A DNA stretch of 26,772 nucleotides from a virus (Duplodnaviria > Heunggongvirae > Uroviricota > Caudoviricetes), in IMG/VR virus record IMGVR_UViG_2778260994_000003, positions 1-26,772 of that record; one strand, 5' to 3'. Below, piece by piece: positions 13,986 to 19,081 of the stretch. The translations under genes were made by a program, and so were the position numbers. The notes beneath the pieces were generated by a model that was not told where the DNA came from, made no database searches, and saw only the letters and a program-made list of their open reading frames with translations. Numbering within the stretch: position 1 is the first letter of the stretch; each line of letters begins with the position of its first letter.

Positions 13986-14279
13986 TTCTGCTTTTCCTAT
14001 GCACTATCCGCATGCTTTTAAGACTACTTGAAGACACAAACGTCGTCATCCACTAAAAGGTTCAAATTTGAGATAAAAGTTCGTTTCTGGTACGAAGCGG
14101 ATCGTTTGAAGAACCGTGTGATCTGCTAAGAGCGAGGAGTGGACGTTCTCAAGGGATTGCTTACATCGAGGATGTATGAATCAACGGGGTGCAGGTCACA
14201 ATATATGCTATCACTTGGTTGTTGAAACGAATGCCAAAGCCTGTGACGAGCGAGGAGTAGACTTTGGCACAAAAAAAAT

Positions 14280-15233
14280 TTAAGTGTCCGATGACTTTGT
14301 TTCAGCCGCTTTATCCTCAACCAATACCCAATCTCCGGAGCTAACCTTTGTCATAAGACAAAATGGAAAGTTGTTAAAAAAATGTTCAATATCACTTGAG
14401 GGTATTTTCTCAATTTTATTTAAACAACCATCAGCTATTTGTAGGGAAATCATTTCTCTTGTAATTTTCATAAATTGATCAACATCAGATAACAACCATG
14501 TTTCATGATGAGCACCAAACAATTTGTGCGGTATATCATCAAGAATAAGATTGTCTAAATCATGTGATTTATCTTTGTTTAGCTCAAGAAGTACAAAATC
14601 AAAAAAATCAAAAAGATATGAATAGAGAAGATGAGTATAAAAGGTAAAATAGTAATCAGCAAAATTAATATTGTTATTGAATCTATTTGAATACATCATA
14701 TGAGGTTGAATCAGATCGTTTAGATCAGAGTCATATGCTTGGAAACAAATCTTTGTTTTAATATTATCATCGTTGACATAATAAGGATTTACTGTTATCC
14801 CTCCATGAACTATCTTATTTCTTATTTTATTAAAGTCCTTATACCATTTTAAATTCAAATCTGGAAATTCCTGTGCATATTGCTGGAAATGATTTTCAAG
14901 GTAATCATATTTGTTGCCATTTTTTTTAGTTGGAAAAATTAATTTATCAGCTATCTGATATGCAATATCCCATATCGTGCTGATTTTATAATAGCAATAC
15001 TCAATAGCACTAATGCTGACAATTGATGTTGCATCATGTTTTCTGATGAACTCAGCATCTTTTTGAATTTTATTAATGTAAGTAATCATATAAAACAGTT
15101 TCTTGAAATGAGTTTTTAAATTTTTTAAAAGAAACTGAAGTTTTATGTCTTCCAGTGTATCTTCTTCATACTTATTTAAGTACATAATAATTTTATAAAG
15201 TGGACTGCCAACTCTTTTTGCATGTACATCCAT
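14280..15233 (-). CDS. AT-rich hypothetical protein with a HEPN-like R-N-x3-H motif (Abi-like candidate)
   Basis: 317 aa at roughly 30% GC. Contains KIRNKIVHGG (R-x4-H with a polar residue after the Arg). GGAG RBS and its own TTGACT-17-TTAAAT promoter. Confidence 0.45.
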   Translation of the reverse strand: MDVHAKRVGSPLYKIIMYLNKYEEDTLEDIKLQFLLKNLKTHFKKLFYMITYINKIQKDAEFIRKHDATSIVSISAIEYCYYKISTIWDIAYQIADKLIFPTKKNGNKYDYLENHFQQYAQEFPDLNLKWYKDFNKIRNKIVHGGITVNPYYVNDDNIKTKICFQAYDSDLNDLIQPHMMYSNRFNNNINFADYYFTFYTHLLYSYLFDFFDFVLLELNKDKSHDLDNLILDDIPHKLFGAHHETWLLSDVDQFMKITREMISLQIADGCLNKIEKIPSSDIEHFFNNFPFCLMTKVSSGDWVLVEDKAAETKSSDT

Positions 15234-15273
15234 TATTTACTCCAATAAATCAATGCGAACATTTTAATTGAAA

Positions 15274-15302
15274 ATTTAATGCCAAAAACTTTAGTTAGTC
15301 AA
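15274..15302 (-). promoter_or_regulatory. Candidate sigma70 promoter for the HEPN-like gene
   Basis: On the minus strand: TTGACT (15297..15302), 17-nt spacer, TTAAAT (15274..15279), about 40 nt upstream of the ATG at 15233. Confidence 0.4.
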
Positions 15303-15402
15303 TAATTTATTCAAACGTCCGCTACTGGCACAAAGCAGACGCCCACTCTCACGCGAATGCTTTGCCCTTGACTTGCCAACAACCGTATCGCTTGCTCCGC
15401 AA

Positions 15403-16695: not shown

Positions 16696-16715
16696 ATTGC
16701 AGCCGGGATAAATAA

Positions 16716-16736
16716 ATGCCGCCTCTGTGGCGGCAT
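16716..16736 (-). terminator. Hairpin with T-rich tail 8 nt after the betT-like stop
   Basis: ATGCCGCC-TCTGT-GGCGGCAT perfect inverted repeat followed on the minus strand by TTATTTAT. Confidence 0.5.
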
Positions 16737-16743
16737 GTTGCTG

Positions 16744-18747
16744 TTAACGAACCAGATGCAGGAAGTGCAGGTGTTTTTCGTACTGGTCCAGTATGTCATT
16801 AATCAGCTGTTCCTGATTCCAGCCCATTACATCATAATTTTGGCCGCCCTCTTTGAGATAGACTTCAGCGCGATAATATCGATGTTGTTCACTCTGCTGC
16901 TCATCATTATCCAGCGCAGCGAGCGCGAAGGTCGGTGAGTTATACCCGCGAAGCCTCACTTCATATATATAATTCAGCTCGTTGCCCAAATCGACTTCAA
17001 GGCGAATACGATCCTCGGCGGCGTCACTGATGTGGCTTATCGTTCCCTGCTTGTTAAGTTCCTCCTGAACCAGCGTCATGGCGGGTTGGATAATGTCGTC
17101 CATAAAACGTTTCACAAGAGAACGCTTCGGCAAATACGCGATATTGCGTAACCTTCTCTGCCAGGGAATTGGGTTACGTGCAGCCGTAGGAGCAATAGTC
17201 GCCATGCTAAGGCTTTCACGCTTGGTCAAATCCCGACGCAGGGCTTTTAACAGTCCGTATATGGATATTAATAAGATAACTGAGAAGGGCAATGCACTCG
17301 CTATCGTTACGGTTTGCAACGCACTCAGCCCCCCTGCGATCAGCAGGGCAATAGCAACAACGCCCATGAGCAATGCCCAGAAAATTCGCTGCCAGACGGG
17401 CGTGTTTGCCACCCCACCTGATGCCAGAGTATCCACAACCATTGCCCCCGAATCAGCAGACGTTACAAAGAAGACGATGACCATCGCCATTGCAATGAAT
17501 GACAGCACGGAAGAGAACGGGAAATGCTCCAGGAAATTAAACAGGGCAAGCGCAACATCCTGCTGAACGGTATTGGCGAGGTCAGTGGCGCCCTGGTTCA
17601 TGATGAGATAGATGGCGCTGTTTCCAAACACCGTCATCCACATGAGCGTAAAGCCGGCGGGAACAAACAACACGCCAGTCACGAACTCACGAATTGTCCT
17701 GCCGCGGGAAACGCGTGCAATGAACATACCTACAAACGGCGACCATGAAAGCCACCATCCCCAGTATAATAATGTCCAGCCCCCCAGCCAGTTGCTCGAC
17801 TTGGGTTCATACGCGTAAAGGTTGAACGTTTTACTCACCAGTTCCGACAGATAACCACCCGTATTTTCCACAAATGACTTCAGCAGAAGCACAGTGGGAC
17901 CCAGGCACAAGACCAGCGCCAGGAGCAACACCGCCAGGCCCAGATTAAGCTCAGACAGGATGCGTATTCCCTTGTCCAGGCCGGACACCACCGAAATCGT
18001 CGCTAACCCCGTGATGACCACGATCAAAATGACCTGTACCGTTTCATTGATGGGCACGCCGAAAAGATGGTTCAAACCGGCATTCACCTGCAATACACCG
18101 TAACCCAGCGATGTTGCAACGCCAAAGACAGTGCCTATCACGGCGAAGATATCAACCGCGTGGCCTATAGGCCCGTAAATGCGATCGCCGATAATGGGAT
18201 AGAGCGCAGAACGCAGCGTTAAAGGCAGACCGTGACGGTAACTGAAAAAGGCCAGAATCAGCGCCACGATGGCATAAATTGCCCATGCGTGCAGACCCCA
18301 GTGGAAGAACGTCAGGCGCATGGCTTCCTTCGCTGCCGCAACGGTCTCTGGAGTGCCGACAGGTGGCGAAAGATAATGCATCACAGGTTCGGCAACGCCA
18401 AAGAACATCAGGCCGATCCCCATCCCTGCCGAAAAAAGCATCGCGAACCAGGAGTGGTAGCTGAAATCAGGCTGCGCATGGTCTGGGCCCAGCTTTATAT
18501 CACCGTAACGTGAGAGTCCAAGGAACGTGACGCTCAGTAAAATCAGGGCCACAGCAAGTATGTAGAACCAGCTGGCATTCGTGAAGATTTGTTGCTGAAG
18601 TAGTTTAAAATTTTTGTCGGCGACATCCGGGAATACGGCGGCAAAGGCGACAAGAAGGAAAATTAGCAAAGCAGATGTAAAGAATACCGCTTTGTTAACC
18701 TGGCTTGTAGACTTCTTTGGGGTTGTATCATTTTCACTCATAATCAT
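16744..18747 (-). CDS. BCCT-family transporter, BetT-like (choline/betaine/carnitine type) with C-terminal cytoplasmic extension
   Basis: 667 aa. WTLLYWGWWLSWSPFVGMFIARVSRGRTIREF matches the BCCT signature of E. coli BetT as recalled ([32 protein letters not shown]). Confidence 0.85.
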   Translation of the reverse strand: MIMSENDTTPKKSTSQVNKAVFFTSALLIFLLVAFAAVFPDVADKNFKLLQQQIFTNASWFYILAVALILLSVTFLGLSRYGDIKLGPDHAQPDFSYHSWFAMLFSAGMGIGLMFFGVAEPVMHYLSPPVGTPETVAAAKEAMRLTFFHWGLHAWAIYAIVALILAFFSYRHGLPLTLRSALYPIIGDRIYGPIGHAVDIFAVIGTVFGVATSLGYGVLQVNAGLNHLFGVPINETVQVILIVVITGLATISVVSGLDKGIRILSELNLGLAVLLLALVLCLGPTVLLLKSFVENTGGYLSELVSKTFNLYAYEPKSSNWLGGWTLLYWGWWLSWSPFVGMFIARVSRGRTIREFVTGVLFVPAGFTLMWMTVFGNSAIYLIMNQGATDLANTVQQDVALALFNFLEHFPFSSVLSFIAMAMVIVFFVTSADSGAMVVDTLASGGVANTPVWQRIFWALLMGVVAIALLIAGGLSALQTVTIASALPFSVILLISIYGLLKALRRDLTKRESLSMATIAPTAARNPIPWQRRLRNIAYLPKRSLVKRFMDDIIQPAMTLVQEELNKQGTISHISDAAEDRIRLEVDLGNELNYIYEVRLRGYNSPTFALAALDNDEQQSEQHRYYRAEVYLKEGGQNYDVMGWNQEQLINDILDQYEKHLHFLHLVR

Positions 18748-19081
18748 TTATTCCATTAATTAAATCCGCACTGGATAGAAGGTACTACCTCTCACAGAGT
18801 AGCAAAGTTCAACTGGCTATGCGGGATTAATCGGAATGCATGGTGGAATGAGTGCCGATACAAATCATCCTATATTCTAAGGAGTTTTAAGTTACTCAGC
18901 CTGCCAATTACTGGGGCATTTAATTTGTATGATCTGTATCAAAGCTGGGATATAAGTTAAGTGAAGTATATTAGGCACGAATTACCAGCGTCTGCTCTTG
19001 GCACAAAGCGGACAACCACGCTAGCTCTACCCTGTGCCACAAAATGTCAATTTGCATCTGAACTAATGCACTTTAATCTCG

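Follow-up and report, generated by a model that had tools for sequence, protein, structure and literature searches.

Two types of 24-bp palindromic site at gene-cassette borders in a lambdoid prophage: candidate sites of natural cassette exchange

Prophage 'defence hotspots' hold a huge and fast-changing pool of anti-phage and other accessory genes, and we know of no explanation so far for how genes enter and leave at exactly the same position in unrelated phages. Among the closest described systems are integrons, in which a tyrosine recombinase accompanies arrays of short cassettes that are highly diverse and have a repeated recombination element between them, and the pdif (Xer) modules of Acinetobacter plasmids, which are discrete modules, mobile between replicons, with short core sites made of arms and a 6-bp centre. 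In engineered recombinase-mediated cassette exchange (RMCE), Cre or Flp swaps a segment as a block between paired sites (lox/lox511, FRT/FRT3) that have the same arms and different, incompatible spacers. Here, we analyzed a stretch of 26,772 nucleotides (hereafter, the window; positions 1 to 26,772 of IMG/VR record IMGVR_UViG_2778260994_000003), which is a Rac/Qin-like lambdoid prophage of Escherichia coli, and the repeats that it carries at the junctions of its cargo genes. These repeats are 24-bp sites with one of two centres, type A and type B. Judging from sequence comparisons, we estimate at about 0.68 the probability that they are the core recombination sites of a gene-cassette exchange system in prophage hotspots, operating by the full mechanism proposed below.

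The arrays bounded by these sites share with integrons both the general layout and further traits: most of them lack a recombinase gene (compare the clusters of attC sites lacking integron integrases, CALINs), their cargo is rich in defence genes, and a cassette lies beside the recombinase gene on the 5' side of that gene. The differences are equally concrete. The recombinase is here a 200-aa protein consisting of a catalytic domain only, with the integron-integrase models TIGR02249 and NF011946 not among its NCBIfam matches, and the sites are conserved 24-bp palindromes of 9-6-9 design, whereas integron attC sites are imperfect hairpins of 57-141 nt with R''/L''/L'/R' boxes (RYYYAAC ... GTTRRRY) that recombine at R' in folded single-stranded form, and to which the outer AAY/RTT of the A|B composites described below bears a superficial likeness only. 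There are two site types, with exchange at both cassette ends (in the centre of A and of B), and the cargo genes lie in either orientation, several with promoter-like sequences, whereas integron cassettes are mostly promoterless and co-oriented behind Pc. Finally, the system resides inside phage genomes. By integrase family, attC structure, and cassette orientation it is not an integron, and by its sites it is not a Xer system either.

As in pdif modules, alternating site configurations flank the segments and the recombinase would be supplied in trans, but the flanking sites here differ in centre rather than in orientation, and the hosts are hotspots of Enterobacterales prophages. The XerC- and XerD-binding arms of dif, GGTGCGCATAA and TTATGTTAAAT, share no similarity with GTCCGCTYY, and only the 6-bp length of the centre agrees. 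The RMCE principle offers the nearest parallel in site design, yet Cre and Flp are used there by engineering, whereas the system here is natural and its types A and B are presumably incompatible; a natural system built on this principle is what would be new. The FimB and FimE recombinases likewise have about 200 aa, lack a separate arm-binding domain, and act on short inverted repeats, but the best DNA-invertase score that the 200-aa protein reaches in NCBIfam is 27.5 bits, far below the cutoff of 222. Because the sites of an array stand in direct orientation, they would support integration or excision of a segment, not its inversion. Reverse-complemented, the type-A centre reads GTGCCA, which resembles the spacer of the Rci shufflon, GTGCCAA.

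A further parallel is with the variable loci of P2-like phages (Z/fun, tin-old), as the sites serve two hotspots, one of which lies between G and FI of P2. The title of a 2004 study by Nilsson et al. reportedly invokes site-specific recombination for such loci. In the full-text-searchable literature, no paper contains the site sequence or describes the system, nor the lambdoid hotspot, the A/B order, or the link to a recombinase; the study by Nilsson et al. lies outside that literature, so that an earlier description of the P2 sites is possible. The defence hotspots of P2 and P4 were described without the sites, with speculation on cos ends (Rousset et al. 2022, PMC9122126).

Anatomy of the sites and their copies in the window

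The anatomy of the repeat unit can be read directly from its many copies. Each site consists of 9-bp inverted arms, GTCCGCTYY and RRAGCGGAC, around an asymmetric 6-bp centre, which is TGGCAC in type A and GAGCGA in type B, with arms common to both types. Three pattern scans of viral contigs and annotated genomes yielded 484 sites, 362 of them non-redundant (180 of type A and 182 of type B), from which the consensus was derived. The cargo-proximal side of a site carries an additional conserved AAY or RTT, and perfect sites can fold into 9-bp stems closed by 6-nt loops. In the window, the pattern GTCYGCT-N11-GCRGAC matches the three exact sites listed in Table 1, where shuffled sequences lead one to expect 0.01 matches, and allowing two mismatches adds a match at 14121.

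A preliminary description of the window had pointed to a pair of related repeats around the DUF2254 and BCCT/BetT-like genes. The pair is real (as the top direct repeat of the region, 15316-15349 and 18989-19022, it spans 34 nt at 79% identity, and both copies contain a 10-mer, TGGCACAAAG, that is found nowhere else in the window), and the two copies do flank these genes. The 15-bp direct repeat described at 14130-14144 and 14248-14262 exists as well and corresponds to the centre and right arm of two degenerate type-B sites. The third copy of the core that had been listed is present with one base changed (TTTGGCACAAA at 14263-14273); it amounts to a degenerate, armless type-A centre that carries no significance by itself, the core with one mismatch having 5 matches in the window against 2.6 expected. 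The stems of 7-8 bp with loops of 20-27 nt do appear in minimum-energy folds, if weakly (-7 to -9.7 kcal/mol, z of -1.4 to -3.2), but they are not a feature of the family, as they occur in 3 of 97 flank clusters, which equals the control rate. The relevant structure is the 9-6-9 palindrome instead. Our analysis adds two features to the copies thus described, a type-B site at 13098 and an A|B pair of degenerate sites at 14079 and 14121.

That degenerate pair has three arm mismatches in each site and, in a consensus scan, the centres TGGTAC and GAGCGA; its 42-nt register equals the dominant spacing of the family, an A site and a B site separated by 18 nt, and it is a former junction between two cassettes. 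The scrambled stretch at 14241-14274 is probably a decayed site too, judged by its likeness to the family consensus. From the hok side, the array of the window accordingly runs B site, Mrr_cat gene, decayed A|B composite, a relic of about 96 nt with the scrambled B/A remnant, the gene for a 317-aa protein, A site, the DUF2254-BCCT pair, A site, and DUF977. The CCCTGTGCCA in the backbone flank on the DUF977 side (19014-19045) has the same sequence as the end of the recombinase module described below, ...GCAGCCCT-GTGCCA. In O157:H7 (L005, 5001-5049), the same A-to-G change is seen in the site centre (TGACGC) and in the inverted partial copy (GCGCCA), which looks compensatory or like co-conversion.

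Several other identities were set aside. The sequence at 13085-13121 is not an inverted copy, as the type-B site there has the same orientation as the others. A tRNA or tRNA-like origin was dropped because ARAGORN finds only the tRNA pair at 6782-6935. Comparison with a sigma-54 promoter (TGGCAC-N5-TTGC), nut boxA/boxB, dif, hix/gix, lox, Tn7 and insertion sequence (IS) ends, REP/BIME, and ERIC gave either a sequence mismatch or the wrong orientation.

Table 1. Sites, cargo genes, and backbone features of the window
Feature	Position	Strand	Evidence or remark
Type-B site GTCCGCTTT GAGCGA AATGCGGAC	13098..13121	+	exact match; junction of backbone (hok/sok side) and cargo
Type-A hybrid site GTCCGCTAC TGGCAC AAAGCAGAC	15317..15340	+	exact match; junction of 317-aa cassette and DUF2254-BCCT cassette
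Type-A hybrid site GTCTGCTCT TGGCAC AAAGCGGAC	18990..19013	+	exact match; junction of cargo and backbone (DUF977 side)
Decayed A|B composite	14079..14144	+	degenerate A 14079-14102, 18-nt linker, degenerate B 14121-14144
Scrambled remnant	14241..14274	+	type-B centre and right arm GAGCGAGGAGTAGAC (14248-14262) abutting armless type-A centre TGGCAC (14265-14270)
Inverted partial type-A centre CCCTGTGCCA	19030..19039	+	DUF977-side backbone flank; pairs with 19000-19006
Cargo gene 1, restriction-endonuclease-like (Mrr_cat)	13149-13985	minus	Pfam PF04471, E = 4e-11
Cargo gene 2, 317-aa protein	14280-15233	minus	travels with cargo gene 1
DUF2254 gene of cargo cassette	15403-16695	minus	Pfam
BCCT/BetT-like transporter gene of cargo cassette	16744-18747	minus	Pfam
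DUF977, backbone, last gene of replication module	19082-19504	minus	Pfam PF06163; anchors one hotspot side
hok/sok toxin-antitoxin locus, backbone	12615-12786	minus	Rfam sok, 106.7 bits, E = 4e-24
Replisome organiser	19545-20621		
RecE-like gene	22656-25136		recE annotated in related prophage
Integrase gene	from 25477		
Host MFS transporter gene	1-1284		
tRNA-Gly(TCC) and tRNA-Thr(TGT)	6782-6935	minus	ARAGORN

Breakpoints, exchange point, and site order

All three exact sites of the window coincide with homology breakpoints. At site 15317, the homology of the DUF2254-BCCT pair begins at the left edge of the site both in a second prophage, where LysR-GGCT-MFS cargo lies on the other side, and in a chromosomal copy beside acuR. 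Across five contexts, the right half TGGCAC AAAGCAGAC GCCCAC... stayed constant with DUF2254, while the left arm and left flank varied; the pair is found in another prophage context, on plasmids, and in E. coli chromosomes. Upon searching 5426 E. coli genomes, the queried region was matched in 3950, most of which carry a chromosomal DUF2254-BCCT copy at about 94% identity. One such copy (L002, NZ_CP069657.1, 4990-8560, equivalent to 15314-18850 of the window) adjoins acuR and is flanked by two degenerate type-A sites, GTTTGCTTT TGGCAC AAAGCATAC and ...TAC TGGCAA TAGCGGAC; the chromosomal DUF2254-BCCT looks like a cassette of old standing, or like the source of the one in the window.

On the DUF977 side, the segment 18990-19039 is kept downstream of DUF977 in about 3468 of the 5426 genomes, with different DNA beyond it: O157:H7 has QueH and an NgoMIV-type restriction-modification system there, and strain W137 (NZ_CP163067) has other genes. 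On the opposite side, a homology on the hokD side that is common to many E. coli genomes stops at 13100-13121. The 2.2-kb segment with the Mrr_cat and 317-aa genes was found at 99.9% identity in one other genome, in a P2-like prophage of strain LD93-1, where it occupies the Z/fun hotspot between FI, the gene for the tail sheath, and G, the gene for tail-fibre assembly; the homology starts at 13097 and ends after TGGCACA, so that both ends fall within sites 13098 and 15317. The two type-A sites of the window have hybrid arms, GTCCGCT/AGCAGAC at 15317 and GTCTGCT/AGCGGAC at 18990, whereas an 'empty' phage site in strain W137 has the perfect arms GTCCGCT/AGCGGAC. Such reciprocal hybrids are what a circle insertion would leave, a suggestive sign seen here in one instance. 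The earlier suggestion that the repeats are junctions or recombination sites is supported: in the comparison across strains that had been proposed, cargo edges coincide with the repeats, and cargo boundaries in other strains and phages lie inside them.

Where within the 24 bp the exchange occurs was examined by comparing the 362 non-redundant sites pairwise, in pairs that are not phylogenetically independent. In type-A pairs that share the right flank but not the left (n = 378), the rate of difference at positions 8 and 9 was 66% and 58%, against a background of 61% and 55%; at positions 16 and 17 it was just 10% and 15%, where the background was 34% and 63%. The pattern is mirrored in type-B pairs that share the left flank but not the right (n = 374): there the rate was 4% and 2% at positions 8 and 9 (background 70% and 35%), and at positions 16 and 17 it was 62% and 57%, with a background of 57% and 62%. 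Positions 1-9 hence follow the left flank and positions 16-24 the right flank, which confines the exchange to positions 10-15, the 6-bp centre. Inverted arms around a short asymmetric centre of 6-8 bp, together with an exchange point inside that centre, are what characterizes the simple core site of a tyrosine recombinase.

The order of the sites is equally regular. Neighbouring sites enclosed cargo in the order B-cargo-A 153 times and A-cargo-B 4 times, and of the tandems, 49 were A|B and one was B|A. The A|B linker, with a conserved ...TAACTGAGCTGAAG, measures 18 nt in 26 out of 42 distinct composites. Cargo length ranged from 339 to 4679 bp (median, 1420), and the 201 cargo open reading frames (ORFs) fell into 169 clusters, with 115 on the minus and 86 on the plus strand relative to the oriented centres. 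A set of 39 loci with an identical pair of backbone flanks held 17 different cargoes. Sampled cargo included SIR2/ThsA-like, PDC-S35 TIR-like, retron-type reverse transcriptase, and restriction endonuclease proteins, and several cargo genes come with their own promoter-like sequences. At these sites, unrelated prophages swap accessory genes, of which many are anti-phage.

A linked recombinase gene and the proposed exchange

Some arrays encode a 200-aa protein (WP_023147793.1) that matches the catalytic domain of Phage_integrase only, with the catalytic R, K, HxxR, H, and Y recognizable by eye in its translation. No NCBIfam family reaches its cutoff for this protein, the integron-integrase, Xer, and DNA-invertase models included, and its best matches (XerA/XerC) lie far below cutoff. 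It has more than 8000 homologues, of which the top 120 are 77-95% identical across Gammaproteobacteria. The layout around the gene, constant in about 20 distinct contexts, ties it directly to the sites: upstream lies a variable consensus-like arm followed by TCGCTC-AT-AAGGGAC and a conserved leader, and downstream a hairpin (AGGGCTGC-AACA-GCAGCCCT) takes the place of one arm, followed by GTGCCA and a variable consensus arm. The recombinase gene therefore fills the 'linker' slot from A to B, bounded by the two site centres, and among E. coli genomes the homology around it stops at its two flanking sites. Strain W137 is one example of a genome with both arrays and the recombinase gene. The layout is preserved in homologues of about 60% identity, which have other centres (GGCCAG, GGGTCG, TGACCC). 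We name the 200-aa protein the candidate recombinase because its gene is physically linked to the site centres, and consider it likely, on the strength of this linkage, that it catalyses the exchange in trans.

The leader of the recombinase gene (L004, 1805-1843, with equivalents in L410-L443) contains a conserved inverted repeat, ACTCAAATCTCC ... GGAGATTTGAGT, which would sequester the GGAG ribosome-binding site and suggests translational control. In contigs of marine Gammaproteobacteria that resemble integrative and conjugative elements (ICEs; L404-L409), a homologue of 84% identity sits between arsenic- and copper-resistance blocks, with a half-site GTGCCA-AAAGCGGAC after its stop codon.

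We propose that exchange takes place in the centre of the site, so that the left arm remains with the left-hand DNA and the right arm with the right-hand DNA. Cargo lies between a B and an A site, and neighbouring cassettes are joined by the composite of A, 18 nt, and B. As A and B share their arms and differ in their centres, and would not recombine with each other, a B...A segment could be swapped as a block between loci that have the same pair of sites. Insertion of a putative circle carrying GTCTGCT...AGCAGAC into a phage site GTCCGCT...AGCGGAC would yield the two hybrids at 15317 and 18990. The catalyst would act in trans and would be the 200-aa tyrosine recombinase, little more than a catalytic domain. 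We are much more confident that the repeats are the points at which cassettes are exchanged than that the 200-aa protein is the enzyme. For a broader claim we consider the odds about even, namely that recombinases of about 200 aa with two heterospecific 24-bp core sites form an integron-like gene-capture system performing natural cassette exchange, which stocks and shuffles the accessory and defence hotspots of lambdoid and P2-like phages, ICEs, and chromosomes across Enterobacterales, and has relatives with other centres in other Gammaproteobacteria and in soil bacteria.

Several observations weigh against this proposal. The evidence for recombination is wholly comparative, and the pair counts lack phylogenetic independence. 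One class of pairs, the 74 of type B that share the right flank, lacked the linkage expected at positions 16-18. A synthetic excision junction, joining the LysR cassette to DUF977, is absent from the 5426 genomes, and an all-against-all comparison of about 480 loci yielded no precise pair of presence and absence alleles. As for the enzyme, the window lacks the recombinase gene, which is found in 972 of the 5426 genomes (18%) against about 64% for the DUF977-linked A site. The recombinase-proximal arms are non-consensus (AAGGGAC, AGCAGCCCT), and the sites flanking the gene may thus be poor substrates. Moreover, an array in a soil metagenome-assembled genome (MAG) with the same arms carries a different, FimB/E-like recombinase that is only 25% identical to the E. 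coli one.

The lack of precise presence and absence alleles is also what one would expect if the sites were intergenic sequences conserved for some different function that serve only as short homology patches for occasional swaps by RecA, Red, or RecET, as in the 'linker sequence' model of lambdoid mosaicism. The arms are near-identical everywhere, a composite with its linker offers up to 66 bp of similarity, and the prophage itself has a RecE-like gene. The patches of identity, however, span just 6-9 bp, and homologous recombination normally needs far more. In addition, exchange is found only at positions 10-15, leaving the identical 7-bp arm blocks on either side unused, and positions 8-9 never travel with the right flank, nor positions 16-17 of type B with the left one. 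With the strict B...A order and the centre-bounded recombinase gene left unexplained as well, we regard this explanation as improbable, although it is the strongest of the alternatives.

We consider it very unlikely that the cassettes are non-autonomous transposons resembling miniature inverted-repeat transposable elements (MITEs), with the cargo-proximal half-sites AAYGTCCGCTYY as terminal inverted repeats and a transposase elsewhere in the genome. The additional AAY and RTT on the cargo-proximal arms do create a terminal inverted repeat of about 12 bp around each B...A unit, but the backbone-proximal halves have the same arm, so that the full palindrome spans the junction, one part of each site belonging to the cargo and the other to the flank. 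Within A|B composites the linker is conserved and not derived from a target, the protein linked to the sites is a tyrosine recombinase instead of a DDE or HUH transposase, and no target-site duplications were noticed upon inspecting the junction alignments, for which no systematic search was made. Marginally less probable still is a role of the sites as regulatory hairpins of accessory genes (terminators, RNA-processing sites, or operators) whose place at junctions would reflect the ends of genes, akin to the shared regulatory elements that the preliminary description had offered as an alternative. Perfect sites can indeed fold into their 9-bp stem and 6-nt loop, and the weak long-loop stems fold as well, yet the latter are absent as a family feature, the stem is not followed by a T-tract, and the terminator-like hits in 12400-19200 include none of the sites. 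Cargo genes point either way relative to the sites, and arm mismatches are uncompensated and appear as reciprocal hybrids. No Rfam family is found at the sites: a scan of 12000-20000 by E-value returned only sok and weak, unrelated matches elsewhere.

Prophage setting and distribution

The hotspot of the window lies between the replication module, which ends in DUF977, and the hok/sok-DUF968 region, where hokD is annotated in related genomes and the hok/sok locus anchors the other side of the hotspot. The intervening cargo of about 6 kb has every gene on the minus strand. The product of the 317-aa gene has no match in Pfam or PADLOC, which leaves an earlier 'HEPN-like' label for it unconfirmed. 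The prophage also encodes a repressor, the ydaS/ydaT pair, DUF968, RusA, an antiterminator, a methylase, lysis genes, and bor. Next to hok/sok and upstream of DUF968 lies an isrK-like hairpin (12372-12453, minus strand) that scores below threshold and has a U-tract. The two tRNA genes sit between the antiterminator/methylase region and the lysis genes, the position at which Stx-type lambdoid phages carry tRNA genes. An ORF of 427 aa without a Pfam match (8751-10034, plus strand, opposite to the flow of the late genes) adjoins an N6/N4 DNA methylase gene (7104-8150, minus strand), and the two may form a second accessory locus of the prophage.

Beyond this prophage, the exact A-18 nt-B composite was found in 98 species-representative genomes, mostly of Enterobacterales, where it covers most genera (Klebsiella, Citrobacter, Enterobacter, Pantoea, Serratia, Rahnella, Erwinia, Kosakonia, Buttiauxella, and others), and arrays reach five cassettes. 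Isolated phages have the sites as well, namely a few lambdoid phages and, at the G-FI locus, P2-like ones (Escherichia phages 899 and 9W and Yersinia phages); the sites were never annotated in them. In the Qin prophage of E. coli K-12 (L003), a B...A pair (4021-4044 and 5012-5035) encloses flxA, while the trkG region of the K-12 Rac prophage has no site. The annotated ORF ydfV of Qin overlaps the A site, with relBE-hokD just past it, and the Qin array is inverted relative to the backbone in comparison with the window. Soil MAGs labelled Alphaproteobacteria or Actinomycetes (L367, L337, L385, L306) carry the same arms ATGTCCGCT with the centres TGGCAC, TGACCC, or GGGGGT and triple tandems. Cassettes of about 1-1.5 kb lie between these triple palindrome tandems, and L367 also encodes a FimB/E-like recombinase of 181 aa and a patatin gene.

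At the level of annotation, the sites mean that K-12 'genes' such as ydfV overlap a recombination site candidate, and the compact make-up of the system could provide a natural cassette-exchange tool. The B...A signature would allow cassettes of unknown function to be mined as candidate defence systems. Overall, a defined pair of sites together with a candidate recombinase would supply a mechanism, testable at the bench, for the entry and exit of genes at the same position in unrelated phages.

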